DNA of 64,000 bases from Bacteroidales bacterium. GTDB taxonomy: Bacteria > Bacteroidota > Bacteroidia > Bacteroidales > VadinHA17. Made by a program: the position numbers and the translations under genes. The notes under the pieces are model-generated. The model saw only the letters and a program-made list of their open reading frames with translations. It ran no database searches and was not told where the DNA came from. Within the stretch, counting starts at the first letter, position 1. The number at the start of each line of letters is the position of its first letter. This document shows positions 21,261-60,733 of the stretch, in pieces. Location: positions 3,255,423 through 3,319,422 of the forward strand of contig OY764960.1 of the NCBI GenBank assembly GCA_963668715.1. The letters run 5' to 3'.

Positions 21261-21324
21261 ATGATTGGGAATATATGAATGAAATTTGCTTAAAATAAGT
21301 ATTTACTATTCAATAACTTAAAAC

Positions 21325-22188: not shown

Positions 22189-22229
22189 TAACCTGATTTA
22201 GTATTCAACATAAGGGAGAGGGATATTTT

Positions 22230-42300: not shown

Positions 42301-42308
42301 ACTGTCAA

Positions 42309-42662
42309 TTGATGTCCCGTGTGAAAGCGCTGGCTGAACGTATATATAATCCTGTTGAAGAAGAAAAGATATATAAATTCGGCTCTTTTACCTTCGACAC
42401 TATTGAATGGACGCTTGTTAACGGTGACAGTTCCGAAACGTTATCGAGTCGTGAAGCCCGGATATTGCATCATTTATGCAGGAAAATGAATGAAGTAGTG
42501 CCGGCACAAACCTTGTTGATAGATATATGGGGCGATGATGACTATTATATGTCACGCAGCCTTATTGTTTTTATCACGCATCTTCGTCACAAACTGGCCC
42601 CTGACCCTTCTGTTCAGATAGTTAATGTGAGAGGGGTGGGGTATAAGCTGGTCTGTAAATGA
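42309..42662 (+). pseudogene. 3' fragment of an OmpR/PhoB-type response regulator (winged-helix domain only, no receiver)
   Basis: The text SRVKALAERI...YKFGSFTFDTIEWTL...LSSREARILHHL...IDIWGDD...FITHLRHKL...NVRGVGYKLV corresponds to the linker plus Trans_reg_C domain. The frame is closed by TGA at 42297-42299, so the receiver domain is absent. Confidence 0.6.
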
Positions 42663-43468: not shown

Positions 43469-43525
43469 TCGTCGTAAGCCAGGGGAAGGAAGAAAACTTT
43501 TGGATTTAGGACTAAAATTTTACAT

Positions 43526-44203: not shown

Positions 44204-44469
44204 AGGGGCATTATGGCTTTATTCTTTTTTTGCAAACTTTAAATATTTTTTAGCAATACATTGTTTCCGTGCTGGAAAGAAAGCCGGAGAAAAAGCATCA
44301 TTCGCGGAATTTTTTATTCGTCAGACTTTAAATTTTATGAATTTATGAAGAGAGGGGCCAGTGCTTGCCTTGGTTTCTTTACCCTTTATTAGTCTAATAC
44401 CGCCAAAGGCGGGACTGAAAGCGGGTGCGATGGTAAATACTGTTTCTTACAGCTACAAATGATTAATTT

Positions 44470-45734: not shown

Positions 45735-46787
45735 TCAAAACTTTTTCTTTCCCCAAATGATTATCCCCGACACAGCAAGGAAAGACCCGGCAAGCCCTGT
45801 GAAAAAGGTTACTGATTTTCCGAACCATCCCAGCCAGTCGCCTATATGTAGTTTGCGGAAGGTGTTCCGTATTTTCAGGTCTTTCAGGATTTGAGCATCT
45901 TCGGTTTTCTTCCCGGTATATTTATTAATCAGGTAGGGCGTGCCGGTAAAGGTAACCATTCCGATTTTTGTGCCTGCGATACATTGTATCCGGGACGATT
46001 GATCCATATCCCATAATTCGGTTTTCACCATTCTTACACCGGGATTTTGCATTAACGGATTGATGATTGAGGCAAGCGGCAGGGGGTGTCGTGTAGTATC
46101 TGTTTTAACCATCGGTTGTCCGTGTTTTTGTGCTTCGATGCCCTGTTTGGGAAGATAGAACAAGGCGACACCGCTGACAGAAAGCAGAAGCATTACCAGG
46201 ACAAAATATAAGCCGAAAACCCGGTGCAGATCAATCATCCTGCGTAAAAACGGTACATTATGTTTTATTGTAAGCGAATTTTTGAGGTATTTTTTACTCT
46301 TGTTCTTCGGCCACCACATAATAAGTCCCGTAACAAGTTCTATTACAAAAATAACGGAAGCAACCAGAACAACCCATGCTCCTGTTTTTTTCAAGAGCAA
46401 TTGTTTATGGAAATGTGCCGTCATCGAAAACAGACCAACCAGCCGGCTTTCACCGGTGATTTGTCCCGTATGCGGGTTTACATATACATAGCTTTTCCCT
46501 GTTTTTTTACTGCCTACGATAAACAATGTTGCTTTATCCTTTTTTTTATACGTAAAACATTCTAATATAATATGTTCTGGGTAGGCTTTTTTTACTGTTT
46601 TGAGCATTGCATCGATGGAAATCTGCCAGTTTTGTGGCCTTACCGTTGATATATTATGGTTGGCGAGGTTTAATATTTCATCGGAGAAGACGAATAAACT
46701 GCCACTCAAACAGATAAAAAATACGATAACGGCACTTGGGAGCCCCAGCCATAAATGGAGCTTATAATTAATTTTTTTGAAGTTCAT
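45735..46787 (-). CDS. PepSY-associated TM-helix protein (PiuB/FoxB-like putative ferric-siderophore reductase)
   Basis: N-terminal text KLHLWLGLPSAVIVFFICLSGS, the recurring HR/HK..LL TM signatures (FHKQLLL, LHRVFGL, LHIGDWLG) and the size are typical of the family. Confidence 0.7.
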   Translation of the reverse strand: MNFKKINYKLHLWLGLPSAVIVFFICLSGSLFVFSDEILNLANHNISTVRPQNWQISIDAMLKTVKKAYPEHIILECFTYKKKDKATLFIVGSKKTGKSYVYVNPHTGQITGESRLVGLFSMTAHFHKQLLLKKTGAWVVLVASVIFVIELVTGLIMWWPKNKSKKYLKNSLTIKHNVPFLRRMIDLHRVFGLYFVLVMLLLSVSGVALFYLPKQGIEAQKHGQPMVKTDTTRHPLPLASIINPLMQNPGVRMVKTELWDMDQSSRIQCIAGTKIGMVTFTGTPYLINKYTGKKTEDAQILKDLKIRNTFRKLHIGDWLGWFGKSVTFFTGLAGSFLAVSGIIIWGKKKF

Positions 46788-46829
46788 TTTATTAAATAGT
46801 ATTAGAGTAATAGTGTTGGCTGTTGCCCT

Positions 46830-47438
46830 TTAGCTGTCGGCCCTGAACAGCATCATATAATAATAGCCTAAATCGACATACTCTTGCTTGAGAAAGCCAT
46901 ACCCTGCTAAGGCTTCTTCTAATTCTTCAGGCGATATACGCATACCCAGGGGAGGGCCGAAGGGCATTTCTTCTTTTTTGCATTCGATGACGGACAACTG
47001 TCCCCCGGCTTTCAGTATTCTTACTATTTCGGGATAAAGATTTTTGCATTCTTCTGACATCTTATTAGCATGCATAACGGTTGCCAGCAGGCATTGGTCT
47101 GCACAATTGTCACCAATGGTTACAGTCAGGCAAATATCGCTTTCAACCGTTTCTATATTGGTGAGATGTAGCCTGAGGGCTTCCTCATTAATCCCATCTA
47201 ACATTTTTGTCCATACATCCACGGCATATACTTTTCCCTGAAGCCCGATAATTTCAGCGGCACGCAAGGAGTAATCACCTGCGCCACAGCCCAGATCCAC
47301 GAAAATATCTCCCTTTTCCAGGTTCATTTTTTCAAAGACCAGGCTTGAATCAAGCTTATAAAAGCTGCTCGGGCCGCGATTACCGTGTTTTTTTCCTTTG
47401 TTAAAGCCCCCCTGATGTTCTTCTCTGCATTTTTTCAT
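46830..47438 (-). CDS. class I SAM-dependent methyltransferase
   Basis: Motif I is VDLGCGAGDYS. An acidic post-I residue (VYAVDV) and motif IV/V spacing are present. Confidence 0.75.
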   Translation of the reverse strand: MKKCREEHQGGFNKGKKHGNRGPSSFYKLDSSLVFEKMNLEKGDIFVDLGCGAGDYSLRAAEIIGLQGKVYAVDVWTKMLDGINEEALRLHLTNIETVESDICLTVTIGDNCADQCLLATVMHANKMSEECKNLYPEIVRILKAGGQLSVIECKKEEMPFGPPLGMRISPEELEEALAGYGFLKQEYVDLGYYYMMLFRADS

Positions 47439-47457
47439 AATTCGGTTATATTTTTTG

Positions 47458-47880
47458 TCAGATAACTGCCATTCTTAAGTATATTCCCCTGTTTCGTAAT
47501 TCTTTATTCAGAAGAATTATAAAAGAACCATATTCTTTTACAGTAGGGTTATATATACCGCAAACCGGCGAACCTTTTATGCCGATAAGTCCGGTTATCT
47601 CGAAATCCATCTGTTTATATTTTTCTATTTGAATAAGCAATGGGTTTATTATTCCGGCATACAGGTTCCGGGGATTTTTTTTTATTATATGTTCTGCTTT
47701 TTTTTTATCATCTTCATTCATAAGAGATACCAGGTGCGGGCAGGGCATTTGCACAATACCCGTTTTGAAGTCGAACAACACTTTCAGGACTTCTTCAGTA
47801 CTGTTTCTGGCTTCCGGAGTAAATCCTTTTGTCATAAAGCAATATGGCACGAGTATTATTTTTCTCCCGGTATTTTCCAT
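47458..47880 (-). CDS. small cytoplasmic Cys-containing hypothetical protein
   Basis: 140 aa with conserved-looking Cys contexts (VPYCF, MPCPHL, KGSPVCG). Family not recognised. It is in an operon position between the TonB receptor and the methyltransferase. Confidence 0.45.
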   Translation of the reverse strand: MENTGRKIILVPYCFMTKGFTPEARNSTEEVLKVLFDFKTGIVQMPCPHLVSLMNEDDKKKAEHIIKKNPRNLYAGIINPLLIQIEKYKQMDFEITGLIGIKGSPVCGIYNPTVKEYGSFIILLNKELRNRGIYLRMAVI

Positions 47881-47901
47881 TGTTATTATTATTTTGATAG
47901 A

Positions 47902-50130
47902 TTATTTTATCCCGAAAGGAACTTTTATACTCAGACATATATTCCGTCCGGGATTATAAAAATGCATCTGTTTTAAGGTTGAGAGATGGTCAACATATTT
48001 TTTGTCAAAAATATTATTAGCCGATAGTCCTATCATTATAAACTGATTGCTGATTTTTATTTTGGCATAAGCTTTTACATTAAAAATGGTATAACCGTCT
48101 GTTGCTGTTTCTTTTTGAGCCGGATTATCCTGTGGTAACGCGGTTACGGCAGAAAAATATAAGCCAGGGTTGGTAAATATCCACAGGGATTTTTTTTCAA
48201 ATCCTGCTTCGTAGCTGAATTTATGTGCAGGAATATATGGCAGGTATTCACTGTGCTCCCGCTTTCCTGTTACCGCTGAATATGTACCTTTCAGGTGTAG
48301 CCACGGAATAAATTGGGGATGGTAATGAATTCCTGCTTCGCCGCCGTACAAATTGGCATTGTCCTGTGAAATATTGTAAATATAGACCCCGTTTGAAGTT
48401 GTGTCTCCTGTGGGAGCAAGGTAAATATAGTTGTTGATATGATTGTAAAACAGGGCGGCATCTATCGAAAGGCTGGCAGATTGATAATGAAAGCTTATAT
48501 CGGATTCGTAGGCATCTTCCGGGTTCAAATTTTTACCGGCCACTTCGTATATGTTTCCTTTTAAGCCGGTAAACAGAAGTTCGCGGAGGTTAGGCATACG
48601 GCAGGCTTTTGCAAAATTTGCCCGCAGGGTTGTTTTGTCTGTCAGGCGATAGGTGGCACCGAGTGAACCGTTGGGGCTTACAAAGTTGTCAGAAACGGCA
48701 GCACGGTAATTCTGAGCCTCTTCTTCGCCACTGGCTTTGGAATCTATTGAACTGAAATCTATACGTATACCTCCCTGAAGTTTTAACTTATCGATACGAT
48801 ATGAGGCAAAAGCCATTGCACCGATACGGTTGACACCGGCATCGGGAATCCCTTGTTGCATCCGGTTGTTGAGGTTTTTATGCGCCTGACTCATCCCCTG
48901 AACGCCAATGATGTAATCCGATTTTTCATTGGAAGGCAGATGTATTTTTGTTTCGTAGGTAAATGTGTTGAGTTGCATTTCCACAAATGGGACATCAGTA
49001 GTTTGATAGGCACTTCTCAGGTTGTTTTGCCAGGCGGCATTTATTTCGCAGCGTACCCGGTCGAGAAATAATTTATTGTGCGATGAAATGAGATGATGGT
49101 GCGGATCCTGGTACCATATTTCATTTTTCCTGCCCCGTTCTTTTATAAGTGGCATAGCTTGTGGCATTGTCAGTCCGACTTGTTGCTTATAATAATAATA
49201 TGAGAGTTTAAATGTCCCGATTTTGGAATTATATCCTGTGTTTATACTGGTTGACCATTCGTTAAAGCGGGAATTCGGCAAATAGTCACCGCCGCCTTGT
49301 TTATAATCAGCAAAAGTTTTATAATCGACCCGGCATCCTGCAAAAAAATGTTTTGAAGCCCCTTTCAGTCCAAGGCTATTACTGGAACCCAAGGTATTTG
49401 AATGGAACTGTGTATTGTAATCGCCGGTTATTTTTCCCTGCGGGGCAGGTGTCTCGCTGATAAAATTAATCACCCCGCCCACGGCATCGGAACCGTACAA
49501 TAACGAAGCTGGTCCTTTAATGATTTCCACACTACCTGCTCCGTTATTATCAATTCCGGCAGGATGTCCATCGCTATATTGATAGTTTTCTATCCGTGTG
49601 CCGTCTTTTGTAATGAGAATACCGTTCATCGAAAGTCCACGGATAACAGGTTTTGACATTCCCGGCCCCCGCGAGATCATATCCACACCCGGCACAACGG
49701 TAAGTGCTTCCATCAGGTTAGGAGTACCGGATACCTGAATGATTTCGGGTTTTAAGACATCTATCTTTACTGCATTATCACGCTGTGACGATACTGTTCC
49801 TGCGGAAACGACAACCTCCTGTATTTCAATGGTTGCTTCCGTCAGCGAAATATTTAAATCGTTCATCCCCGGTAGTATAATAAGGGATTTAATCTCGGGA
49901 TTGTATCCCAAATAAGAAAACTGCACTGAGATTTTTCCTATTGGTATATTTTCAATTATGTATTCCCCGTCCTTGTTACAAAGTACGCCTTTGTTCTGAT
50001 CGGGCATATAAACCGATACTCCTGCCAGTGGGTTGCTTTTGTCGTCGGTTACCTTTCCTTTAATAAATGTTTGTGCATTGATCGTAATGTAAAAAAGAAA
50101 AAATAAAATTGTTAAAATTGAATGCTTCAT
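47902..50130 (-). CDS. TonB-dependent outer-membrane receptor (siderophore/metallophore type) with carboxypeptidase-regulatory N-domain
   Basis: Signal peptide from MKHSILTILFF present. It has a CarboxypepD_reg domain (IKGKVTDDKSNPLAGVSVYM...), a plug (SGTPNLMEALTVVPGVD, GLSMNGILITKDG, IEIIKGPASLLYGSDAVGGVINF) and a 22-strand-size barrel. The ORF is open from 50184. Confidence 0.85.
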   Translation of the reverse strand: MKHSILTILFFLFYITINAQTFIKGKVTDDKSNPLAGVSVYMPDQNKGVLCNKDGEYIIENIPIGKISVQFSYLGYNPEIKSLIILPGMNDLNISLTEATIEIQEVVVSAGTVSSQRDNAVKIDVLKPEIIQVSGTPNLMEALTVVPGVDMISRGPGMSKPVIRGLSMNGILITKDGTRIENYQYSDGHPAGIDNNGAGSVEIIKGPASLLYGSDAVGGVINFISETPAPQGKITGDYNTQFHSNTLGSSNSLGLKGASKHFFAGCRVDYKTFADYKQGGGDYLPNSRFNEWSTSINTGYNSKIGTFKLSYYYYKQQVGLTMPQAMPLIKERGRKNEIWYQDPHHHLISSHNKLFLDRVRCEINAAWQNNLRSAYQTTDVPFVEMQLNTFTYETKIHLPSNEKSDYIIGVQGMSQAHKNLNNRMQQGIPDAGVNRIGAMAFASYRIDKLKLQGGIRIDFSSIDSKASGEEEAQNYRAAVSDNFVSPNGSLGATYRLTDKTTLRANFAKACRMPNLRELLFTGLKGNIYEVAGKNLNPEDAYESDISFHYQSASLSIDAALFYNHINNYIYLAPTGDTTSNGVYIYNISQDNANLYGGEAGIHYHPQFIPWLHLKGTYSAVTGKREHSEYLPYIPAHKFSYEAGFEKKSLWIFTNPGLYFSAVTALPQDNPAQKETATDGYTIFNVKAYAKIKISNQFIMIGLSANNIFDKKYVDHLSTLKQMHFYNPGRNICLSIKVPFGIK

Positions 50131-50283
50131 ATTTGTAATAATTAAATGACTATTTATATGAAGCAAAGGAAAAGAAATAGTCATACGGGACTGTAACGCG
50201 AAAAGGTCCTTTTGTTTAATGTAACGGCGGAAATAAATCCGGTAGATACTGTGTTTAGCCGGGTCCGCCGGGAATAAAAATAT

Positions 50284-52011
50284 CTAATTAGCTATTTTCC
50301 AGCCGACAGCATTTTCTTGTGCTTGCCACATCTCGTAGTATAAGCCTTGCTTTTTTAATAGTTCGTTATGTGTTCCTTCTTCCCGGATTTTTTTATTGTT
50401 AAGCACGATTATTTTACCGGCATCTTTTATGGTTTTCAGACGGTGTGCAATTACGATAACCGTTTTCTTTTGCAGCAGGTTGGAAATAGCTTCCTGTATG
50501 AAAAACTCGTTTTCAGGGTCGAGAGACGAGGTTGCTTCATCAAGCAGAACAACAGGGGCATCTTTCAGCATTGCCCGGGCAATGGAAAGCCGTAGCTGCT
50601 CGCCACCCGACAGGTTACTGCCGTTTTCATCGACCATCGTATCGTATCCATCGGGTAATTTTGAGATAAACCCGTGGCAATTTGCTTTCCTGGCAGCGTC
50701 AAGCACTTCTTCACGTGTGGCATTTTGATTTCCTGTCCGGATGTTATTGTAAATGGTATCCTTAAAAAGAATGACTTTCTGAAAGACCATACTTACATTT
50801 TTCAGAAGCTTTTCGGGAGCGATATTCTTCAGCTTATCTTCCCCGATAGAGATACTGCCATTGTCCACATCGTAAAATCGTGCGATCAGGTTAGCCATTG
50901 TCGATTTACCTGAACCGGAAGGGCCAACTAAAGCTGTCATCGTATTTCCGGGAATGGTGACATTAATATCATCCAGCACTATTGAGCCGTTATACCCAAA
51001 TGAAACATTTTTAAAAATAATATCCTGCTTTTGAGCGTTTAATTCCTGTTTTTCCCCGTCAAGCTGTTTTTCGTTGAACAGATCGCGGATGGTTTGCCCT
51101 GCAATTAAAAGGTAGCGTATTTTTATATAATTGAGCGAAATAGCTTTCAGGTTCTCAAAAAAACGGGAACTGATAATAATGAAAATGATAAATGTTTTTC
51201 CGGTCAGGCTACCCCCAACCATAAAATACGAGCCCATCAGTATGAGCATCACCAGTCCGAAGTCGATGGAGATGCCCGATAGTGTCATCACGGGGCTTAG
51301 TGTGCCTTCGGCTTTCAGGCTTTTTACTTTGAAATCGGCCATTTTTTCAACCAGGTCGTCAAACTTTTTTTGTGAATTATTAAACGATTTAATGAACTTG
51401 ATACCGCTTACAAATTCGATAATGCTATTGGCTAAATCCGACGACGACCGGTACAAGGCTTTACCCTTGTTGTTCATTATTTTTTTTGCCCATACCAGTA
51501 ATCCTAATGCCAGCGGCATTGTTATCACGGTGGCTATTGCCATACGGTAGTCGATGTAAAACAGTCCTGCCGCGACCAGCATACTCAGCACAAATGTTGA
51601 AATAAATTCGGGCAGAAGCATTGTAATGATTTGTTCTACCTTGTTTACATTGTCAAGTGTTTTATTGGACAGCTCCCCGGTGTCGTGACTGCTGAAAAAA
51701 CCCAATGGAAGTTTCCTTATATGTTCCCCCAGCCTTAGCCTTAAATCTTTTACCATTATGGTTCCGTCGGCACGCGAAAGGGTTATGCCCAGATACGAGA
51801 ACAACATCCTGACGACGGCACTGCCGGCAATGATGTAAATGTATGTCCATAATTTTTGCAGGGTAAATGTATGGTCGATGATATTGCACAAGAGAAAATA
51901 CACTACCACAAAGGGTACTGCCCCGAAAAAGGCTTCCAGTACCGAGATAAGGGCTACCCTCACCATCCGTATCCGGTATTTTCCGGCTATTAATTTCAGT
52001 ACTTCTAACAT
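50284..52011 (-). CDS. ABC transporter, fused TMD-NBD half transporter (exporter fold; YbtQ/IrtB-like position)
   Basis: 6-TM N-domain. Walker A is GPSGSGKST, the signature is LSGGEQLRLSIARA and Walker B is VVLLDEATSSLD. Confidence 0.85.
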   Translation of the reverse strand: MLEVLKLIAGKYRIRMVRVALISVLEAFFGAVPFVVVYFLLCNIIDHTFTLQKLWTYIYIIAGSAVVRMLFSYLGITLSRADGTIMVKDLRLRLGEHIRKLPLGFFSSHDTGELSNKTLDNVNKVEQIITMLLPEFISTFVLSMLVAAGLFYIDYRMAIATVITMPLALGLLVWAKKIMNNKGKALYRSSSDLANSIIEFVSGIKFIKSFNNSQKKFDDLVEKMADFKVKSLKAEGTLSPVMTLSGISIDFGLVMLILMGSYFMVGGSLTGKTFIIFIIISSRFFENLKAISLNYIKIRYLLIAGQTIRDLFNEKQLDGEKQELNAQKQDIIFKNVSFGYNGSIVLDDINVTIPGNTMTALVGPSGSGKSTMANLIARFYDVDNGSISIGEDKLKNIAPEKLLKNVSMVFQKVILFKDTIYNNIRTGNQNATREEVLDAARKANCHGFISKLPDGYDTMVDENGSNLSGGEQLRLSIARAMLKDAPVVLLDEATSSLDPENEFFIQEAISNLLQKKTVIVIAHRLKTIKDAGKIIVLNNKKIREEGTHNELLKKQGLYYEMWQAQENAVGWKIAN

Positions 52012-52066
52012 ATTATGCCAGTTAAAGTTTTTATTTTGTTTTTGTAATTTGTTTTGTCAGGAGAGT

Positions 52067-52157
52067 GAAGTCAGAAGACGGAAGTAAAAAAAAATACAAT
52101 TATGACTCTACAGCTTCCGACTCCCGACTTCTTATTCCCGACCCCCGGCTTCTGATT
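52067..52157 (-). repeat. heptamer-built inverted repeat forming an intercistronic hairpin and encoding the C-terminal tail of the upstream ABC gene
   Basis: GAAGTCAGAAGACGGAAGT (52067-52085) is near-complementary to CTTCCGACTCCCGACTTC (52114-52131). The heptamers CTTCCGA CTCCCGA CTTCTTA TTCCCGA CCCCCGG CTTCTGA run across the stop codon at 52132-52134. Confidence 0.7.
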
Positions 52158-53898
52158 TTTTTCCAATTTTCCAACGGGATGCATCCATATGTAAATTCCA
52201 CATTTGTTTATACTGACCACCTGAGTCTATTAATCGTTCGTGAGTGCCGCTTTCCACAATTTTGCCTTTATTGATATACAGTATCTGGTTGGCATTTTTA
52301 ATGGTCGAAAGCCTGTGTGCAATAACAATCACGGTTTTATCTTTTAACAGGGCATTTAATGCCTTCTGGATTTTATCTTCGTTTTCGGTATCGGCATAAC
52401 TGGTTGCCTCGTCCAGCACTATTACGGGTGCATTTTTTGCCAGGGCCCGTGCAATAGCAATCCGTTGTTGTTCGCCGCCGCTCAGGTGAACGCCGGCCGG
52501 CCCGATGATGGTATGATAACCGTCAGGCAGCTTTCGGATAAACTCATCGGCCTGTGCCTGTCTGGCGGTTTCGACTACTTTTTCTTCTGAAATGGAAGTA
52601 TCGCCCATACGGATATTCTCAATCACCGTATCGTTGAACATAAAAATATCCTGGAACACAAAACTTATATGTCTCATCAGCACATCGCCCCTGATGGATT
52701 TGATGTTATACCCGCCAATGGTAATATTTCCGTCTGTAACATCCCAGAACCGGGGGATTAACCTCGCTACGGTTGTTTTTCCTGCTCCCGAGGGCCCGAC
52801 CAGTGCTGTAATGGTTCCTTGTTTTAATCTGAAGTTTACATCATCGAGCACACGGGTATTCCCATAGGCAAACGAAACGCGGTTGAATTCAATATCGTAA
52901 TTATCGAGATTTGTGATTGTGCCATTGTCGTCGATTTCTTTAGCGTCCATTACTTCCCGGAGTTCATCCACACCTTTGAAAATTTGTGTCAGATTCGAGC
53001 CGAAGCTTGTTAGTTGCTTCATAAAGCGGGTAAGCCCTATGCCGATGAACAGAAACATCAGGAAGGTGGATAACGTAATTTTTCCAACAGCATACATATA
53101 ACCGCCTACGGGAAGCAATGCCAACACCCCGCAGTCCATCAGCAGGGCATAAGTGGCAAAAAAAACGGCTGCTTTCCTGTTCATATTAATCCAGTACTGA
53201 CTGTATTTGTCGGCTTCATCCTTGTATTTCTTAAACGAGAATACCGACAGGTTAAAGGCTTTTATCACGGGCATGCCGCGGATAAAATCAATAATCGTAG
53301 TGTTCATATCCGATTTTATTTTAAAGAATGTACTAATGTTTTCCGCTTCGAGTTTTATCCGGAACCGTTGCAGCCCAACGCCCAGGAAGACAGGCATAAT
53401 ACTCAACAGGGCAAGCCAAAGGTTAAACGATGCCAGCCACGAAAAGATGATAACAGGCAGGAAAACAACCGATACCAAATCGACCAGATTATGAGCCACA
53501 AACTCTTCAATGGCTTCTATATTACCCATCATAATTTTTTTTATGGAGCCGGAACTGGTGTCGGAATAATAACCGAGAGGCAGTCTGGTAAGTTTTTTTG
53601 CAAGTGTCACACGCAGATCGAACAGGATGTTGTACGCAGCAATGTGCGACTGGGTCATTGCAATGCCCGAGAAAATCATCTGTCCGGCAATAAACAGGGC
53701 AGCGATTCCGCCGAGCATTAGCAGGTCGTCCATAATAAACGGAGGATGTATGATTTTTTCGATAATCAAATAGGTTATGTAATACGGCCCAAGCGAACAT
53801 ATCGAACTGAAAAAGATGAGTACACCGGCAATCCCCAAACGGTATTTTCCTTTTTTTGAGATATCTATCAGAAATTTTAATGATTTGTTTTTGATCAT
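52132..53898 (-). CDS. ABC transporter, fused TMD-NBD half transporter (exporter fold; YbtP/IrtA-like position)
   Basis: 6-TM N-domain. Walker A is GPSGAGKTT, the signature is LSGGEQQRIAIARA and Walker B is VIVLDEATSYAD. Confidence 0.85.
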   Translation of the reverse strand: MIKNKSLKFLIDISKKGKYRLGIAGVLIFFSSICSLGPYYITYLIIEKIIHPPFIMDDLLMLGGIAALFIAGQMIFSGIAMTQSHIAAYNILFDLRVTLAKKLTRLPLGYYSDTSSGSIKKIMMGNIEAIEEFVAHNLVDLVSVVFLPVIIFSWLASFNLWLALLSIMPVFLGVGLQRFRIKLEAENISTFFKIKSDMNTTIIDFIRGMPVIKAFNLSVFSFKKYKDEADKYSQYWINMNRKAAVFFATYALLMDCGVLALLPVGGYMYAVGKITLSTFLMFLFIGIGLTRFMKQLTSFGSNLTQIFKGVDELREVMDAKEIDDNGTITNLDNYDIEFNRVSFAYGNTRVLDDVNFRLKQGTITALVGPSGAGKTTVARLIPRFWDVTDGNITIGGYNIKSIRGDVLMRHISFVFQDIFMFNDTVIENIRMGDTSISEEKVVETARQAQADEFIRKLPDGYHTIIGPAGVHLSGGEQQRIAIARALAKNAPVIVLDEATSYADTENEDKIQKALNALLKDKTVIVIAHRLSTIKNANQILYINKGKIVESGTHERLIDSGGQYKQMWNLHMDASRWKIGKKSEAGGRE

Positions 53899-53923
53899 TT
53901 TATTCTATCGTTAAAGCTTATAT

Positions 53924-54433
53924 TTAAAACTTTACCCATGAAAATAACAGTTTTGCAATCAGTCCGCCGATTACTGGCAGTGTTAGTATGCAACACCATT
54001 TTACGAGGACATACTTCCATCCCATAAAGCCAATTTCGAACGGGGTGCGGGTAAGATCCCATGTCGAATAAGCAATGATATAGGCGACAACAGAGCCTAT
54101 TCCTGCTCCTGATTTTAAAAGAGTTCCTCCAACCGACAGGGCAACAAATGTCCCGCCGGGGGTGAGCATGCCAGCCAGTGAAGCCGTAGCAATTCCCGCG
54201 ATCCCCGTATCGTTCCCGAAGATTTTCCGGATGTTGTCGCTTAAATCAAGACTGTTGATCATCCCGATGATGATAAAAGCAAAGAGCAGGACAGGTAATA
54301 TGTTGAGGCCCATTTTCAGAGCATTGCCGAGGCCGTTGATATGAACACCCCTTGTGTATGAATATATCGACAGGCACAGGGCCAGTAAGCCCATTATGAT
54401 TGTTGTTGCTAACATTGTTTTTTGTTTTTGCAT
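53924..54433 (-). CDS. small (169 aa) polytopic membrane protein, half-size permease-like
   Basis: Four to five hydrophobic helices with Gly-rich segments (ASLAGMLTPGGTFVALSVGGTLLKSGAGIG). It starts 5 nt after the upstream gene's stop. Confidence 0.5.
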   Translation of the reverse strand: MQKQKTMLATTIIMGLLALCLSIYSYTRGVHINGLGNALKMGLNILPVLLFAFIIIGMINSLDLSDNIRKIFGNDTGIAGIATASLAGMLTPGGTFVALSVGGTLLKSGAGIGSVVAYIIAYSTWDLTRTPFEIGFMGWKYVLVKWCCILTLPVIGGLIAKLLFSWVKF

Positions 54434-54438
54434 ATCCT

Positions 54439-57400
54439 TTACAGATAATAAATGAACGACTCGACCTTGTCCCGGTCATTTTCATTCCTGTTTCCGTCGA
54501 AAGTCAGGTTCAGTATGGGCTTTGTGTCCGGACCGGAAAATCCTTTGTGCAAAATACTGAGTGAAACGCCGGTATTCTCGTAGAGGGATGCCGCGGTAAT
54601 AATCCCGTCAATATTTGCCGGATTACACAGTACCTTAGCCTGCCTGTAACGGGCAAATGCCCCGGCATAATACCCGATGGTTGTATCGGCTTTCTCTACC
54701 AGATTCCCAATGCCGGGCGTAAACGGACCTTCTTCTTTTAACCGGTATGACACCTGCTCGATGTCTTCTTTTAAACCTGCCAGCTTTTTATTCAGAGCAT
54801 CCTGATTCAATTGGCTGTTTTGCGTTACATAGTCTTTCCAGAAAACCCATACCGCTTCGGAGAGTACGCCATAAACCACTTTATTATCCTGCTCTTCGAG
54901 TGTTCTGAAGGTGAAATCATTCAGAAAGTCGTTGAAAACAATCACAGGCTCGCCAATAGCCATTACCTGTTTTTTGTAATGATGGTTTTTCAGGACATCA
55001 TAAATAGTCCCGGCAATTGTTTTAAGCGCGGAAATATCCAGCTTTTTATCCCGGATCAGTTTCCTGAATTGTAACAGGTATTTAACTCTGTCGCCGTAAG
55101 GTGCTGCATTAATAATATCGCCGGCAATAATGCAGTAGAATATGGATTTTAAGCTGCTTTCATTTAGTGAAATAACATCTTCCAGAAAAGGAGCGATGAT
55201 TTCAACATCTTTGTATTTACAGGCATCGAACTTTGTTCTTAAAATACGGTTGTATTGTCCTTCCACTTCGGCCCCTTCTGTTTGTGGAATCAGAAACGCG
55301 ACATTCTTTTCTTCTTTATCCTGTTCCAGGGCATTAAAGCAACTGCCGAGAAGTGAGGCCAGCGAATAATATTCGTTGGTTAAGGTGTGTTGCCTGCCCG
55401 TATTAATGGCTTTTGCATTTGTTTCAAGAATTTCTGCCTTAAAACCTTTTTGTTGCAACAGTTCTTTGAACAACCCGGAATAAGGATAAAGATTGGGAAT
55501 GTACATTTTTGTCCCCGGATTTACCGCATCCGGAGAGGATTTGATGTTGGGCTTCTTATAATTTATTTTCTTTATATAATAGTTTAAATCCTTCAGGGCT
55601 GCATCTTTATTGACTTTCAGACTATTCACAAAAGCTTCGAGGCGTGTGGTTACGCCGATTTTCGATGCATGTTCGTCAACCTCGATATTCAGGTACGGTT
55701 TATTGCCCATTATTTCTTTGAAGTAATGCAACAATACCGAATCGGGACCGCAGCCGTGATGCGTTAGCAGCACGGGATACATATTCGGATGTTCCCGGAT
55801 GAGGTAGGCCGGTTCAAGGATGTGTTGTCCGAACGGCCAGAACATATTGGGATGTTCACTGGCAATATCAATTCCTTCGGGCAGGTCGAAAAACGGCAAC
55901 ACCTGGTAGCCCATATCCTGTAACTTGTCGGGAACACCGAGGTTCAGAACCGGGTCGGCAATGCCGTACATTTTGGAGATAATGACAAATGTTAATTTAT
56001 TGGGGTCGAGTTTTTCATTCGTTTTCTGCCCGTTTTTGCCCATTCGTTCTTCGAAACGCAAGGCGGCTTCCATTCCCTTTTGGAGGGCACGACCTGTTTC
56101 TTCCTTGCTTTTGCCGAGCAAGCCTCCCAAATTGGAGAACGACTGCTGCATAAATTTTCCGCCCATGCTAAAAGCAAAGGTCGGTGCCACTAACTTTATA
56201 CCTTTCTTTTCGAGCTCCATCGTGTGATTTACAATTTTGAAAGCCAGTTGCATATAGGCACATCCGAAATCTTTCCGCGATTTGGAGCCCGGGTGGTCAA
56301 CAGTATATAAATCGGGGAAAAAAATGTAATCGACCTTTTTGGAAACCAGTTCGGCAACGTGCCCCAGAATCAGTTTTACAGGGAAGCAGGTTTCTTCCAT
56401 CGCGTATTCCTGTCCGAGTTTTATTGTATTTTCGTTGCTCCAGTCTGACAGCAACACATTGAACCCTAAGTTTTTGAAAATGGCGTCGAACATCGGGAAC
56501 ATACCGTAGGTGAATAAGGCCCGCGGAATCCCCACGGTTTTTTTATCCGGGTCTAAAACTCTGTCATAGTCTTCAAAAATGGTCTTTTCTATTCTCTTGT
56601 TGAATTCACCCGTATTATCGTTGTTGTTTTTCCGTATTTGTTTTTTCCCGTATTGCGAAATATGACGCAGGTTTTCTATCCCGATGAAGGTCGTTTCTTT
56701 ACCTTTCATTTCTTCCCGGGTTATAAGAGCGGCCCCGTAAGCCCCGGTAACGCTGAAAAACGGGGTAGTGTTTATTTGTTTGCCGGTTAAGATACGGAAC
56801 GCGTTAGCCACACCCCGGTTAAATGCTATCCCTCCTTGCAGCATTATTTTATTCCCAATCTTTTTTTGCCCGGCAACACGGTGCAGGTAATTTTTTGCGA
56901 TGGAGTAGCATAAGCCGGCTACTATATCTTCTTTTTTTTCTCCTCCCGACAGGCCGGAAACTATTGCCGATTTTATAAAGACCGTACAGCGTTCACCGAG
57001 TGAAGCAGGATGTTTTCCCTGAAAAGCGAGCTGTTCGAGTTCTTCTACAGGGATATTAAATTCCTGTGCCTGTTCGTCAAGGAATGAACCGGTACCGGCG
57101 GCACAGACCTTATTCATCTGAAAATCGGTAACAGCACCGTTGGTTATGCTGATGAATTTTGAATCCTGTCCCCCGATCTCGAAAATGGTATCCACTTCCG
57201 GGTTTATTTTTATGGCGGCCTTTGCCTGTGCCGTAATCTCATCCCTGATAATATCGGCGCCTATCTGCTGACCGATCAGATTTCGTCCGGAGCCGGTTAT
57301 CCCTACGCCCGCGATGCTGAAATTACCTTTCCTTTCCCGGTCGATCTCTTCCATTCCGTTCTGAACGGCTTTCAACGGGTTTCCCTTTGTGCGGATGTAT

Positions 57401-58464
57401 TTATAGGTAACAATTTCCGATCCGGAATTTATTAAAACCAGGTTGGTACTGGTCGAGCCGATGTCAATCCCCAGGAAAAAGGCCGGATTGTCCCTTTCGG
57501 GCATTGAACACTGAATAAGATGTTTTTCTGATATATCTTCGTTTTTTATTCGCGACAGCGGAGGTAATTCCTCTTCTTCCGCATCTTTTATATCGTTTTG
57601 TTCGCTCAGTAAATCCTTCGACATTTTTTGAAAATCCAACGTCAGATTTTCTTTTTTGGCAATAAGGGCCGCCCCAATTGCACTAACAATATCTGAATGT
57701 TCCGGCACCAGCAGTTCCTGTTCATTTTTGTTCAGCACATCCCGCATGGTATCAATAATTGCCCTGTTATTGCTTACTCCCCCGATAAACACTAGCGGCA
57801 CTTCCACCGGCAAACGGCGGATAACAGCTCCTTTGTAATTTTTGACAATGGCGTATGCCACTCCTTTTAGAATATCTTCGGGCGGAACCCCTTCCTGTTG
57901 ATTATGAATGATGTCGGTTTTGGCAAACACACTGCACCGTCCGGCAATTCGGGGAATGGATTGTGCTTTCTCCACATAGTCGGCATAGTCTTCTATCCTG
58001 ATATTCAGTCGCGAAGCCTGTTCTTCCAAAAACGAACCGGTACCGGCCGCACAATCGGAGTTGGTGGATATTTGCAGCATGTTTTTTTGCGGAGCTTCTG
58101 AATTATCCTGATTTTGAATATTAAATCCGGTATAGTACCGGGCATTTTGTCCCCCGATTTCGATCACCGATCTGGCTTCAGGAACTAAAAATTTGACTCC
58201 CTCAATGGCTGCCGCCACATCGTTTACCCCTTGTATTTTCTTGTTCTTCGATAATTTTTTGCCAATGGTACCTGTAATTGCTCCGTGAGTAATATAATTG
58301 GGAGAGAAATCATTATTGATTTGATTCAGAATGGCTTCAAGTGTCTTTTTTATCTTTCCCCTGTGTGGCTGATACTGTGCAAAAACCACTTTTTTTTCAT
58401 TATCGGTAATTGCAGCTTTAACAGCGGAATAGCCGATGTCGATACCTAAACTATATGCTTTCAT
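54439..58464 (-). CDS. 1341-aa fusion: two BcrAD/BadFG (HgdC-type) activator ATPase domains + 2-hydroxyacyl-CoA-dehydratase/DUF2229-like Fe-S domains
   Basis: Two ASKHA ATPase units each carry the cluster-Cys contexts (SLGIDIGYSAVK...DCAAGTGSFLEE...AGRCSVFAKTD; FLGIDIGSTSTN...VCAAGTGSFLDE...GERCTVFIKSA). They are followed by GIPRALFTYGMFPMF...EETCFPVKL...FGCAYMQ...HHGCGPD, typical of the activase-associated dehydratase-like module. Confidence 0.8.
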   Translation of the reverse strand: MKAYSLGIDIGYSAVKAAITDNEKKVVFAQYQPHRGKIKKTLEAILNQINNDFSPNYITHGAITGTIGKKLSKNKKIQGVNDVAAAIEGVKFLVPEARSVIEIGGQNARYYTGFNIQNQDNSEAPQKNMLQISTNSDCAAGTGSFLEEQASRLNIRIEDYADYVEKAQSIPRIAGRCSVFAKTDIIHNQQEGVPPEDILKGVAYAIVKNYKGAVIRRLPVEVPLVFIGGVSNNRAIIDTMRDVLNKNEQELLVPEHSDIVSAIGAALIAKKENLTLDFQKMSKDLLSEQNDIKDAEEEELPPLSRIKNEDISEKHLIQCSMPERDNPAFFLGIDIGSTSTNLVLINSGSEIVTYKYIRTKGNPLKAVQNGMEEIDRERKGNFSIAGVGITGSGRNLIGQQIGADIIRDEITAQAKAAIKINPEVDTIFEIGGQDSKFISITNGAVTDFQMNKVCAAGTGSFLDEQAQEFNIPVEELEQLAFQGKHPASLGERCTVFIKSAIVSGLSGGEKKEDIVAGLCYSIAKNYLHRVAGQKKIGNKIMLQGGIAFNRGVANAFRILTGKQINTTPFFSVTGAYGAALITREEMKGKETTFIGIENLRHISQYGKKQIRKNNNDNTGEFNKRIEKTIFEDYDRVLDPDKKTVGIPRALFTYGMFPMFDAIFKNLGFNVLLSDWSNENTIKLGQEYAMEETCFPVKLILGHVAELVSKKVDYIFFPDLYTVDHPGSKSRKDFGCAYMQLAFKIVNHTMELEKKGIKLVAPTFAFSMGGKFMQQSFSNLGGLLGKSKEETGRALQKGMEAALRFEERMGKNGQKTNEKLDPNKLTFVIISKMYGIADPVLNLGVPDKLQDMGYQVLPFFDLPEGIDIASEHPNMFWPFGQHILEPAYLIREHPNMYPVLLTHHGCGPDSVLLHYFKEIMGNKPYLNIEVDEHASKIGVTTRLEAFVNSLKVNKDAALKDLNYYIKKINYKKPNIKSSPDAVNPGTKMYIPNLYPYSGLFKELLQQKGFKAEILETNAKAINTGRQHTLTNEYYSLASLLGSCFNALEQDKEEKNVAFLIPQTEGAEVEGQYNRILRTKFDACKYKDVEIIAPFLEDVISLNESSLKSIFYCIIAGDIINAAPYGDRVKYLLQFRKLIRDKKLDISALKTIAGTIYDVLKNHHYKKQVMAIGEPVIVFNDFLNDFTFRTLEEQDNKVVYGVLSEAVWVFWKDYVTQNSQLNQDALNKKLAGLKEDIEQVSYRLKEEGPFTPGIGNLVEKADTTIGYYAGAFARYRQAKVLCNPANIDGIITAASLYENTGVSLSILHKGFSGPDTKPILNLTFDGNRNENDRDKVESFIYYL

Positions 58465-58765
58465 TTATAAACTTTTTAATTCTTTTTTCTGATCTCAAAG
58501 GGAACTATTACCAGAAAAATATATGTCTTGCCCAAGTGTTTCATGTTATTAATCGTTTACTTACCTTTTTGAATCTCTTCCGGTTAAAATCCCCATTTAT
58601 AGGGATTGACTTCTGCATTATCCCTGACTATTTTTGTATGATTAAATTTTTCTATAAAAGTATAGTGGTATGCAAGTAATGAGGTAACGCTAAACGGTTA
58701 GTTTCTTTAACCTCACGACGGTAATATCATGGGATATATTTTTTTGATAATTCGGACAGGTTATT

Positions 58766-59740
58766 ATGGAATATTCAATAACAAGCAGTGAATTAGGACA
58801 GTTTTACAATAATCGACACACCCAAAATTGTACGGATAAAATGTGTTTTTATACACGGGACGAAATAGATACAGATTTTCTGAGAATGTCTGTAAGCGAA
58901 TGGAAAACACATGATATAAAGGCTCATCTGATTCGCACGAAGGCACAACATGACGTTCATATAAAGGGTGGAATACGCGGGGAATTTGCCGTGCTTCATT
59001 TTGTTTGTGAAGGAGAGACAAAGATTGATAAGACTAAGGCTTTGCCATCTGTTATTAACAAAAACACGAATAATTTTTTCTGTTCAATTACTGAAGATAT
59101 CGGACATTCGTTTAAGCAAGGCAGAAACAATATTTATTTCAGGGTTTTTCTTCCGTACAGTTATATCAATGCCAGGGCAGAACAACATCCTAATGTCTTT
59201 GGGGCATTACAAATGATGATAGCAAACAGGTGTCCTGTTTTGCGGGAGAGCAATCTGACAACTACCCTTGAAATGAAAACGGTTATAGAGCAAATAAAGA
59301 ATGCCCATGATATGGGAACACTTGCATCTTTTTATTTTGAGACTAAGGTTCAGGAACTCTTAACCCTCCAATTACAGCAAATAAATAAGATTGATTGTTT
59401 GGAATGCAAATATCATATCTATTATCAGAAACAGCTAAACGAGGCAAGAAACCTTATTGAAGCCTGTTACCAAACACCTCCGACTATTGCCCAACTGGCA
59501 CAGGAAGTGGGAATGAGCGAAACGGTGCTGAAAACGAATTTTAAGAATTGTTTTGGTACAACGATATACGGTTATTTATTCGAGTACCGTATGAATATCG
59601 CCAAAAAACTTTTATCAGACAGCAGCATGACTATTGCCGAAATAGGAGATCAGACCGGCTATAGACATCCATCGCATTTTACTACTGCTTTTAAACGGAA
59701 ATTTGGGCTTAATCCCGTGGAGTATAGGAGAAGGGCATAG
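58766..59740 (+). CDS. AraC/XylS-family transcriptional regulator (YbtA/PchR-like size and position)
   Basis: The C-terminal double HTH is TIAQLAQEVGMSETVLKTNFKNCFG ... TIAEIGDQTGYRHPSHFTTAFKRKFGLNP. It is divergent from the uptake operon. Confidence 0.85.
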   Translation: MEYSITSSELGQFYNNRHTQNCTDKMCFYTRDEIDTDFLRMSVSEWKTHDIKAHLIRTKAQHDVHIKGGIRGEFAVLHFVCEGETKIDKTKALPSVINKNTNNFFCSITEDIGHSFKQGRNNIYFRVFLPYSYINARAEQHPNVFGALQMMIANRCPVLRESNLTTTLEMKTVIEQIKNAHDMGTLASFYFETKVQELLTLQLQQINKIDCLECKYHIYYQKQLNEARNLIEACYQTPPTIAQLAQEVGMSETVLKTNFKNCFGTTIYGYLFEYRMNIAKKLLSDSSMTIAEIGDQTGYRHPSHFTTAFKRKFGLNPVEYRRRA

Positions 59741-60530
59741 AGAGAAGTCTTTCTCCGGATCAGGAGATTGCTTCGCTTCGCTCAGCGATCTCCTTTGGGA
59801 GTGATTCAAAGAAAAAAGATCTTTCACCGGATCAGGAGATTGCTTCGCTTCGCTCAGCGATCTCCTTTGGGAGTGATTCAAAGAGAAAAGACCTTTCACC
59901 GGATCAGGAGATTGCTTCGCTTCGCTCAGCGATCTCCTTTGGGAGTGATTCAAAGAGAAAAGACCTTTCACCGGATCAGGAGATTGCTTCGCTTCGCTCA
60001 GCGATCTCCTTTGGGAGTGATTCAAAGAGAAAAGACCTTTCACCGGATCAGGAGATTGCTTCGCTTCGCTCAGCGATCTCCTTTGGGAGTGATTCAAAGA
60101 GAAAAGACCTTTCACCGGATCAGGAGATTGCTTCGCTTCGCTCAGCGATCTCCTTTGGGAGTGATTCAAAGAAAAAAGATCTTTCACCGGATCAGGAGAT
60201 TGCTTCGCTTCGCTCAGCGATCTCCTTTGGGAGTGATTCAAAGAAAAAAGATCTTTCACCGGATCAGGAGATTGCTTCGCTTCGCTCAGCGATCTCCTTT
60301 GGGAGTGATTCAAAGAGAAAAGACCTTTCACCGGATCAGGAGATTGCTTCGCTTCGCTCAGCGATCTCCTTTGGGAGTGATTCAAAAAGAAAAGACCTTT
60401 CACCGGATCAGGAGATTGCTTCGCTTCGCTCAGCGATCTCCTTTGGGAGTGATTCAAAGAGAAAAGATCTTTCACCGGATCAGGAGATTGCTTCGCTTCG
60501 CTCAGCGATCTCCTTTGGGAGTGATTCAAA
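59741..60530. repeat. tandem array of a 72-bp unit (~10.8 copies, near-identical), each unit containing a 9-bp-stem hairpin
   Basis: Unit starts are at 59755, 59827, 59899 ... 60475, spaced exactly 72 nt. The unit is CCGGATCAGGAGATTGCTTCGCTTCGCTCAGCGATCTCCTTTGGGAGTGATTCAAAGAGAAAAGACCTTTCA. GGAGATTGC / GCGATCTCC forms a stem with one G-U. Variation is confined to three positions in the A-rich tail. Confidence 0.95.
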
Positions 60531-60610
60531 CATAAAAAGCCTGTCATTCACTTCGTTCATTTACGGATTTTATTTTTATGTCACTTACAAAAACAAGTTT
60601 TTGACGCTCC

Positions 60611-60652: not shown

Positions 60653-60658
60653 TGTTTG

Positions 60659-60733
60659 TCGGGATGGGGAGATTTGAACTCCCGGCCCCTCGCCCCCCAG
60701 ACGAGTACTCTAACCGGACTGAGCTACATCCCG
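60659..60733 (-). tRNA. tRNA-Pro (anticodon GGG)
   Basis: Manual cloverleaf, 75 nt with no encoded CCA. Acceptor stem CGGGATG/CATCCCG, D stem GCTC/GAGT, anticodon stem CTCGT/GCGAG, anticodon loop CTGGGGG. Variable loop GGGCC, T arm GGGAG-TTCAAAT-CTCCC, discriminator A. Confidence 0.85.

Follow-up and report, generated by a model that had tools for sequence, protein, structure and literature searches.

A large ATPase/Fe-S fusion protein and its methyltransferase partner in a putative metal-chelate acquisition locus of a Bacteroidales bacterium

The acquisition of iron from chelates by strict anaerobes, among them gut Firmicutes, sediment Bacteroidota, sulfate reducers and methanogens, is poorly understood. 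Here we examined a locus that bears on this subject in a stretch of 64,000 nucleotides (nt) from a Bacteroidales bacterium (GTDB lineage Bacteroidota; Bacteroidia; Bacteroidales; VadinHA17; assembly GCA_963668715.1, contig OY764960.1, forward-strand positions 3,255,423 to 3,319,422), which we refer to throughout as the window. It encodes a 1341-amino acid (aa) fusion of two HgdC/BcrAD-type ATPase domains with a core resembling iron-sulfur (Fe-S) dehydratases and reductases, in one gene train with an outer-membrane receptor, ATP-binding cassette (ABC) transporters and a methyltransferase. What would such an enzyme be doing among transport genes? Our preferred reading is that the locus is an AraC-controlled metal-chelate acquisition operon of a strictly anaerobic Bacteroidales bacterium, with an iron chelate as the most likely substrate. 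The sharper picture that emerges from relatives of the locus is that the fusion and the methyltransferase form an iron-regulated module, found across bacterial phyla and into methanogens at 45-55% identity, to which individual lineages add their own uptake hardware. The components themselves are of known kinds; what is new is the fusion subfamily and its regulon link.

A first-pass annotation, made from the sequence alone, had described a train of eight minus-strand genes running from 58464 to 45735 and a divergent AraC gene starting at 58766. We recovered every open reading frame (ORF) at these positions and on these strands, and the domain content that had been given for the train was matched by our Pfam and NCBIfam profile searches. 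In order from the regulator to the end of the train, in window coordinates, the features are:

58766-59740, plus strand: AraC-family regulator, 324 aa (HTH_18, 81.6 bits, and HTH_AraC)
58465-58765, no strand: regulatory region shared by the AraC and fusion genes (alignment of Bacteroidota intergenic regions)
54439-58464, minus strand: 1341-aa fusion of two HgdC/BcrAD-type ATPase domains and a duplicated core of the dehydratase, benzoyl-CoA reductase (BCR) and double-cubane cluster protein (DCCP) type (BcrAD_BadFG, DUF2229)
53924-54433, minus strand: half-size ArsP_1-type permease, 169 aa (PF03773, 39.2 bits)
52132-53898, minus strand: YbtP-like ABC half transporter, transmembrane domain followed by nucleotide-binding domain, 588 aa (ABC_membrane and ABC_tran)
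50284-52011, minus strand: YbtQ-like ABC half transporter of the same domain order, 575 aa (ABC_membrane and ABC_tran)
47902-50184, minus strand: TonB-dependent outer-membrane receptor, 760 aa (plug, barrel and CarbopepD_reg_2, an N-terminal CarboxypepD_reg domain)
47458-47880, minus strand: TudS-related (DUF523-like) three-Cys protein, 140 aa (NF045597, 73.2 bits)
46830-47438, minus strand: class I S-adenosylmethionine (SAM) methyltransferase, 202 aa (Methyltransf_31/25/11)
45735-46787, minus strand: FoxB-type PepSY_TM membrane protein, 350 aa, putative haem-b ferric-chelate reductase (PF03929, 179.5 bits)

The gaps between the genes of the train, from the fusion onward, are 5, 25, 120, 99, 21, 19 and 42 nt, and the terminator-like sites on the train strand all lie within ORFs, in a number no higher than in shuffled sequence. 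One transcription unit is therefore the simplest reading. Scans of the window for sigma-70 promoters and for terminators did not rise above shuffles; the promoter type of Bacteroidota differs from sigma-70.

The fusion protein and its relatives

The fusion matched the Pfam family BcrAD_BadFG (PF01869) at 254.8 bits in two stretches and DUF2229 at 192.4 bits, and scored 306.4 bits against the NCBIfam model TIGR00241, for which the cut-off is 125.4. Among solved proteins, its ATPase part matched PDB entry 1HUX at 137.8 bits, with further sequence matches to 4EHT, 9GAI and 7YYL_E, and precomputed HGD-D matches were present in its close relatives. Each ATPase domain carries a pair of Cys residues 39 residues apart (Cys138/177 and Cys454/493), and all four were invariant in 163 of 163 full-length relatives. 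A Cys pair of this spacing in each ATPase unit of HgdC activator dimers bridges one [4Fe-4S] cluster; the spacing presumably equals that of HgdC Cys127/166.

A structural model of the core (residues 601-1341; predicted local distance difference test score 73.4, predicted template modelling score 0.72) matched the DCCP structures 6ENO and 7YYL and the BzdNO chain 8S02_B with a Foldseek probability of 1.0 and target template modelling (TM) scores of 0.40-0.44. Foldseek also returned TroA/PsaA-type metal-binding proteins, which we set aside as generic alpha/beta similarity given TM scores below 0.3. By profile-profile comparison the core is internally duplicated (E value 2.2e-5), and Cys693 of the first half pairs with Tyr1032 of the second. 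An Fe-S site in both halves, as in the dehydratases, BCR and DCCP, was not found: the core has a single conserved three-Cys site (C693/C735/C905), in the first half, and the site positions of the second half are occupied by Tyr1032 (100/102), Glu1066 (101/102) and Glu1296 (102/102) in the group of relatives to which the window's protein belongs.

An architecture of two BcrAD_BadFG segments, DUF2229 and HGD-D has been published for PlsA plasmalogen synthase and Ger glycerol ester reductase (PMC13159169; PMC12838417), and the fusion has all of these segments on one chain. The family had been called an orphan in the first-pass annotation, a description that has to be withdrawn since PlsA and Ger are characterised homologues with the same architecture.

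Related loci, labelled L001 and onward, were collected from 80 genome and 80 metagenome contexts and several more reached through protein look-ups, 167 loci being counted; ORFs were called in each, neighbours clustered and cluster representatives annotated. The fusion relatives fall into two deep groups that separate at a distance cut of 0.62. One of these, clade B, has 58 loci, a protein length of about 1380-1510 aa and 30-37% identity to the window fusion over the full length, and was found in Syntrophales, Planctomycetota including anammox bacteria, Armatimonadota, Nitrospirota, Actinomycetota and others, in variable neighbourhoods. Its size, taxonomy and gene context suggest that it is the Ger/PlsA lipid-enzyme clade, and we presume so here. 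Verified PlsA genes measure 4248-4920 bp, or about 1415-1640 aa (PMC12838417), and the window fusion is 60-100 aa shorter than the presumed Ger/PlsA clade. The second group, that of the window, has 102 full-length members of 1290-1345 aa and is made of clades A and G. Clade A (at least 42% identity to the window fusion, about 1330-1345 aa) spans Bacteroidota, Firmicutes, Synergistota, Desulfobacterota and Methanomicrobia; clade G (about 1290 aa, 39-40% identity) comes from human-gut metagenomes, where it is very common (L123-L167).

The two groups also differ in their Cys residues. Clade B has a CxxCxxxC...C insert between the second ATPase domain and DUF2229 as well as two three-Cys triads (L033, L021 and L073 are examples), with Cys at the second-triad positions in 58 of 58 members. 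The window's group keeps the first triad, Cys693/735/905, and lacks the four-Cys insert, of which we found no mention in the published accounts of PlsA and Ger. The replacement of Cys by Tyr/Glu/Glu provides a simple sequence rule for telling the two clades apart. Methanogen homologues of this kind were taken as Ger in a published survey, so that the distinction has a bearing on lipid-biomarker and "lipid divide" inferences.

The methyltransferase partner, gene context and regulation

The methyltransferase had been treated as a side feature of the locus, yet it is this very gene that proved to be the real, conserved partner of the fusion. Its orthologues (36-58% identity) lie within 8 kb of the fusion, mostly directly downstream, in 35 of 60 clade-A loci; the linkage held in 24 of the 36 clade-A loci with full flanks and in 22 of 38 clusters formed at 70% identity, and was seen in none of the 107 loci outside clade A. 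Linked pairs occur in Bacteroidota, Firmicutes, Synergistota, Desulfobacterota and methanogens. Of the 120 best relatives of the methyltransferase itself, at least 27 were on contigs equal in size to contigs that bear fusion relatives. The family conserves an N-terminal Cys and GPSS, DxC and IEC(K) motifs, and its sole solved relative is an uncharacterised structural-genomics protein, 3DH0. In NCBIfam the best match was the arsenite methyltransferase ArsM, at 54.7 bits against a cut-off of 263 and over the SAM-binding region only; TehB was also matched, as it was by the L087 enzyme. We rejected identification as ArsM, the score being far below cut-off and the Cys residues appearing, by inspection, to be off the As(III)-binding positions of ArsM.

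Co-conservation of the fusion with transport genes had been set beforehand as the check on which the proposed uptake locus might fall. We counted as metal-linked neighbours Fur, DtxR/MntR, FecCD-type importers, YbtPQ-like pairs, SufCB-like genes and flavodoxin. At least one of these families was present in 32 of 60 clade-A and 35 of 49 clade-G loci, that is, in 67 of 109 loci of the window's group, against 1 of 58 in the sister clade B. The proposed uptake locus withstands this check.

The arrangement of these neighbours is characteristic of each lineage. Firmicutes usually have a divergent Crp-like gene, then Fur, fusion, methyltransferase and an MntR-like gene, often followed by YbtP/IrtA-like ABC pairs, by SufC with a SufB-like gene, or by a FecCD/PBP2 or NitT/TauT-type importer; in the case of a Firmicute ABC gene adjoining fusion and methyltransferase the best matches were YbtP (344 bits) and IrtA (322). 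Methanogens have DtxR, fusion, DGC, PadR, TrmO_N, FmdE and methyltransferase, with FecCD/PBP2 importers and a DUF364 "heavy-metal chelation" gene on the flanks. The order in Desulfobacterota is MarR, fusion, methyltransferase, flavodoxin, with MMPL and LolA-like genes and TonB receptors nearby. Clade G always shows a divergent Crp-like gene, the fusion, a 273-aa protein or cupin and a FecE/FecCD/PBP2 importer, often with DUF6061. The Bacteroidota layout consists of a divergent AraC gene, fusion, half permease, two ABC genes, SufC, a SufB-like gene and methyltransferase. In L168, the closest relative of the window (fusion 87% identical), this layout is extended by the receptor, the TudS-like gene, the methyltransferase and PepSY. 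Between its YbtQ-like gene and the receptor, at 2227-6876, L168 has SufC, a SufBD-like gene, a 312-aa radical SAM gene and an insertion sequence (DDE_Tnp_1), and its train is followed by genes resembling an integrative and conjugative element (ICE) and an integrase. These and the Suf, radical SAM and insertion sequence genes are absent from the window, which is a shortened version of the L168 layout.

Two related loci have further genes of note. In L087 a HydG-type radical SAM maturase gene (20904-22430; 436.6 bits, cut-off 312) directly follows the methyltransferase. The operon of L082 (Vallitalea) ends at 16254-18116 with a full-length ArsP_1 permease bearing a CGCGHDHHHDHHHTSH loop, its TIGR03943 partner and a YibE/F protein, which hints at transport of a free divalent metal ion.

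The link to iron regulation comes from Fur boxes and Fur genes in the relatives. We searched for the 7-1-7 Fur consensus TGATAATNATTATCA, which is not specific to Bacteroidota, with up to one mismatch in the relatives and up to two in the window. The clade A and G loci gave 17 boxes in 1.6 Mb, against 1.15 expected from block shuffles (maximum 3), and the clade-B loci gave 0 in 1.03 Mb. Sixteen of the 17 were intergenic. Four boxes, in L012, L113, L116 and L117, precede the fusion by 27-105 nt, and the remaining boxes include some ahead of importer operons in the same loci. The Fur genes beside the fusion in Firmicutes best matched Bacillus-type Fur in NCBIfam (152 bits, against 89 for PerR and 55 for Zur). 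One such gene, in L083, lies directly upstream of the fusion with a 1-nt overlap. In L081, on a single Logan contig, a 1485-aa ORF (266-4723) carries a Fur domain joined in frame to the start of the fusion, and behind it come the methyltransferase gene, an MntR-like gene and an ABC gene of the YbtP-like kind; this ORF could be a true fusion or an artefact of assembly or frame.

For the window itself, it had been proposed to search the 58465-58765 region for Fur or AraC boxes. This gave no Fur box at up to two mismatches, and motifs of a candidate regulatory type were conserved there. When the region between the AraC gene and the fusion was aligned for the window, L001, L002, L086 and L087, three conserved elements emerged, which we regard as candidate regulatory sites: a Bacteroidetes-type -7 box resembling TAnnTTTG (58652-58664), the palindrome AATCCC-N7-GGGATT (58588-58607) and a block of about 40 nt next to the AraC gene (58681-58722). 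If transcription of the fusion starts from the -7 box, the palindrome would fall within the 5' leader. The AraC protein has orthologues in L001 and L002 (63-65% identity), encoded divergently from the fusion, and a divergent AraC gene recurs in L086, L087 and L091; the N-terminal 220 aa of the window protein had no Pfam match. A cobalamin link was considered and dropped, since the window and six related loci contained no riboswitch, nor any Rfam family other than a tRNA.

Uptake components and surroundings of the train

The two ABC half-transporter genes are adjacent, 120 nt apart, and each encodes ABC_membrane and ABC_tran domains. YbtP (6P6I_A) was the best solved half transporter for the 588-aa chain at 314.6 bits, followed by IrtA (282), Sav1866 (272) and MsbA (263). 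For the 575-aa chain it was YbtQ (8VSI_B/6P6I_B) at 312 bits, followed by PCAT1 (275), Sav1866 (266) and IrtA (261). The pair, for which a YbtPQ type had been suggested, thus corresponds chain for chain and in the same order to the yersiniabactin importer, with moderate margins. No NCBIfam model reached its cut-off for either chain, and MsbA-type models matched below cut-off only. Transport by the pair would be inward.

The half permease covers positions 12-135 of the 294 in PF03773 and gave no BLASTP match to the full-length ArsP_1 of L082. It does not appear to be a pseudogene or remnant, since its orthologues in L001, L003 and L087, all Bacteroidota, have 163-169 aa (63-65% identity) and lie at the same place. 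The receptor scored below the cut-off of every NCBIfam subfamily model, the closest being that for haem/haemoglobin, TonB-hemin (166 bits, cut-off 316.85), ahead of TonB-siderophore (117 bits, cut-off 223.5), and the FRAP/NPNL motif of haem receptors, which we looked for, is absent from it; a 77% identical orthologue lies in the same block of L168.

For the PepSY protein, too, a FoxB type had been put forward, and this was borne out: PF03929 is matched over profile positions 2-295 of 295, FoxB (7ABW, E value 3.6e-6) is the sole PDB match, and the LH.W.G, FH and DLHR motifs of transmembrane helices 1-3 align with those of FoxB, the C-terminal LH.G aligning weakly and below significance. Its adjacency to the methyltransferase is kept in L168 and L169 (81-82% identity). 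The 140-aa "Cys protein" of the first-pass annotation does contain Cys (Cys13, Cys46 and Cys107), and can now be described more exactly as related to TudS: it aligned over its full length with NF045597, the CD3072-family TudS-related putative desulfidase, although its score was below the cut-off of 130. Sequence search found no solved homologue of this protein, and a 44% identical orthologue lies between receptor and methyltransferase in L168.

No non-ribosomal peptide or polyketide synthase is encoded in the window, as had been noted before; the other large ORFs that we checked encode SusC/D, MacB-type, resistance-nodulation-division (RND) efflux and beta-lactamase-domain proteins. Convergent with the end of the train is a further set of three genes:

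42803-45693, plus strand: DtxR/MntR-family repressor with FeoA domain, His_Phos protein and ArsP_2 permease with 10 transmembrane segments (Pfam, NCBIfam)

Membership of this trio in the system is uncertain. MntR-like genes do lie within the fusion operon in Firmicutes, and the window's trio is not beside the train in L168. Gene remnants at 41227-42662 suggest a rearrangement boundary just upstream of the trio: an AcrB-type RND pump is cut down to its last ~300 aa (profile positions 725-1020 of 1021), and a Trans_reg_C domain stands alone.

On the other side, directly after the AraC stop codon and just before a tRNA-Pro(GGG) gene (60658-60733, minus strand), the window holds 11.0 copies of a 72-bp unit (59749-60537) at 98% identity and with no spacers. 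The unit contains the inverted repeat GGAGATTGC...GCGATCTCC, and the long "ORFs" at 59615-60547 (minus strand) and 59768-60535 (plus strand) are artefacts of this repeat.

Proposed function and likeness to known systems

We favour the reading, at a probability of about 0.42, that the locus takes up an iron chelate, processes it reductively in the cytoplasm at the expense of ATP and then methylates the ligand or product. The complex, perhaps with a xenosiderophore or a haem-like ligand, would cross the outer membrane through the TonB-dependent receptor, the ferric chelate would be handled at the periplasmic face by the FoxB-type PepSY_TM protein, and the YbtP/YbtQ-like heterodimer would bring the complex into the cytoplasm. 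There the fusion may act as a self-contained "archerase", in which ferredoxin or flavodoxin would reduce the [4Fe-4S] cluster bridging the ATPase domains (Cys138/177/454/493) and ATP hydrolysis would send an electron of very low potential to the [4Fe-4S] site of the core (Cys693/735/905). Reduction of the metal centre, or of a carbonyl-type group of the ligand, would release the metal; the 202-aa methyltransferase would then methylate the reduced ligand or product, and the half-size ArsP-type permease (elsewhere MMPL or other transporters) might dispose of or recycle the methylated product. The flavodoxin genes in Desulfobacterota operons fit this scheme, since flavodoxin is a known electron donor for HgdC-type activators. 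Pairing of a reductase with an importer also has precedents in the siderophore-interaction domain of IrtAB and in FoxB.

More tentatively, the fusion and methyltransferase may be the core of an ancient, horizontally spread system of anaerobic bacteria and methanogens under Fur/DtxR control, which would inject an ATP-driven electron of very low potential into an imported chelate, or its precursor, and so free iron without oxygen-dependent or hydrolytic chemistry. The Tyr/Glu/Glu site would, in such a system, bind a hard metal ion or the ligand.

Several points weigh against iron-chelate processing. The first-pass annotation had proposed a metallophore-uptake locus that includes the odd enzymes, and while the general idea has held up, it is only in the closest relatives that the fusion is joined by receptor, TudS-like and PepSY genes; the fusion-methyltransferase core stands beside regulators alone in many Firmicutes, and clade G is without the methyltransferase. 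The window has neither a Fur gene nor, anywhere, a TGATAATNATTATCA match with up to two mismatches, so that iron control of the window locus itself would follow from its relatives and from the AraC analogy. Export is conceivable for exporter-fold ABC pairs and MMPL pumps and would agree with biosynthesis, and for a cell starved of iron an enzyme that needs two or more [4Fe-4S] clusters is costly. Our search of the literature found no link of the fusion family to iron, Fur, siderophores or metals, and the characterised homologues PlsA and Ger work on lipid esters rather than metal complexes (PMC13159169).

The main alternative, less likely but to be taken seriously, is biosynthesis: fusion and methyltransferase would reduce and then methylate a common precursor to give a small, perhaps lipophilic, metallophore or other metabolite that mobilises iron. 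The product would be exported through the ABC pair, the half permease or MMPL pumps and recaptured by the TonB receptor with PepSY or, in Gram-positives and archaea, by FecCD-type importers. In its favour, the two-enzyme core is the only constant element, often with regulators alone, and an exporter-fold ABC pair and a FecCD/PBP2 importer share one locus in L005; the MMPL and LolA-like export genes by the MarR-fusion-methyltransferase-flavodoxin set of Desulfobacterota recall MmpL4/5 siderophore export, the Fur boxes in relatives are what siderophore synthesis genes would have, and the homologues PlsA and Ger are biosynthetic (PMC13159169). However, two enzymes are few for the making of a chelator, methylation usually weakens donor groups and no candidate product is known. 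The ABC pairs, moreover, are nearest to the exporter-fold importers YbtPQ and IrtAB and not to exporters, and clade G has importers and no methyltransferase.

It is less probable that the fusion is a metabolic enzyme of iron starvation which functions apart from the transporters, supplying low-potential electrons to Fe-S assembly or repairing it, or drawing iron out of FeS species or a store within the cell, the transport genes being mere fellow members of the regulon. Genes for SufC and SufBD/SmsB-like proteins do lie inside the operon in six loci, the window's closest relative included, a HydG-type or other radical SAM gene is present in L087 and L168, and neighbours in a regulon often cluster with no pathway in common. 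Nevertheless, a single pathway is favoured by the 5-nt gap between fusion and permease and by the order fusion-permease-ABC-ABC, which is the same in four Bacteroidota genomes; this alternative also gives the methyltransferase no role, and the Suf genes are missing from the window.

Detoxification, in which a toxic metal or metalloid or a redox-active xenobiotic would be reduced, methylated and pumped out, is improbable. It could draw on ArsM as the best NCBIfam match of the methyltransferase, with TehB another, on the ArsP_1 and ArsP_2 permeases, on the MarR and PadR regulators of some phyla and on the integrase or ICE-like element adjacent in L083 and L168. The ArsM likeness, at 54.7 bits against 263, extends to the SAM-binding fold only, which makes this alternative less likely; the recurrent regulators are Fur and MntR, with Fur boxes, and TonB receptors, FecCD/PBP2 and PepSY are components of uptake. 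Finally, we all but dismiss the idea that the fusion is a plain PlsA/Ger-type ether-lipid enzyme which stands by chance next to an uptake locus, for although it shares the architecture and 30-37% full-length identity with the ~1400-aa clade, and the survey counted methanogen homologues as Ger, it belongs to a clade separate at the 0.62 cut, without the insert, with Tyr/Glu/Glu for the second triad in at least 100 of 102 members, with a length of 1290-1345 aa rather than the about 1415-1640 aa of verified PlsA, and in a completely different gene context.

If iron-chelate processing is correct, the fusion, as a conserved Fe-S reductase that is driven by ATP, regulated by iron and served by a methyltransferase of its own, becomes a concrete and testable candidate for the release enzyme of strict anaerobes, and the archerase (BCR and 2-hydroxyacyl-CoA dehydratase) class of enzymes gains a new physiological role. 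It would also split a large family whose members are now uniformly annotated "acyl-CoA dehydratase activase".

Comparison with known systems places the fusion near PlsA/PlsR and Ger, which likewise join two N-terminal BcrAD_BadFG domains and a duplicated DUF2229/HGD-D core on one chain and are confined to anaerobes. The presumed PlsA/Ger clade also conserves the first three-Cys site and all four Cys of the ATPase cluster; the fusion differs from it in lacking the four-Cys insert, in having Tyr/Glu/Glu for the second triad, in its methyltransferase partner and in its context of metal regulators and transporters. With HgdC/HgdAB, Bcr/Bzd and DCCP the fusion would share the ATP-driven passage of electrons into an Fe-S core from an ASKHA ATPase dimer bridged by a [4Fe-4S] cluster, but has everything on one chain and one three-Cys site instead of two clusters or an [8Fe-9S] double cubane. 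Unlike the dehydratase and BCR systems, its loci showed no CoA-ligase or CoA-transferase context; to our knowledge, no link to an iron regulator is known for HgdC/HgdAB, benzoyl-CoA reductase or double-cubane enzymes.

Among uptake systems, the TonB receptor and PepSY_TM protein of the window recall the Pseudomonas pair FoxA/FoxB and the Bacteroides system XusABC (BT2063-2065); in B. thetaiotaomicron, loci of the TonB-receptor/PepSY type rank as the most iron-induced (PMC10434189). In contrast to XusABC, the window has no XusB-type DUF4374 lipoprotein, and holds an ABC importer and cytoplasmic enzymes in the same operon. The MMPL pumps beside the fusion in Desulfobacterota resemble those of MmpL4/5 siderophore export and recycling. 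ChuW/HutW-ChuY extracts iron from a chelate anaerobically, by methyl transfer and reduction under Fur control. Points of likeness to it are the receptor's best subfamily, TonB-hemin, and the radical SAM gene in the operon of the relative L168; the window, however, has a class I methyltransferase in place of a radical SAM enzyme, no ChuW or ChuY homologue, and a receptor without FRAP/NPNL.

The divergent AraC gene, TonB receptor and exporter-fold ABC heterodimer of the window are those of the yersiniabactin set YbtA, Psn/FyuA and YbtPQ, the ABC pair showing a likeness to YbtPQ of about 312-315 bits and no curated model assigning it. The window departs from that set in having no non-ribosomal peptide or polyketide synthase and no Fur box, and in the additional fusion, methyltransferase, half permease, TudS-like and PepSY proteins; we know of no cytoplasmic release enzyme for YbtPQ-type importers. 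A functional parallel to the proposed scheme is IrtAB, which, with its fused FAD-binding siderophore-interaction domain, also combines an exporter-fold importer with a cytoplasmic reductase that frees iron, and of which IrtA is the second-best solved match of the YbtP-like chain. Where IrtAB has its reductase domain fused, the window would employ a separate, ATP-dependent Fe-S enzyme, working anaerobically and followed by a methylation step.

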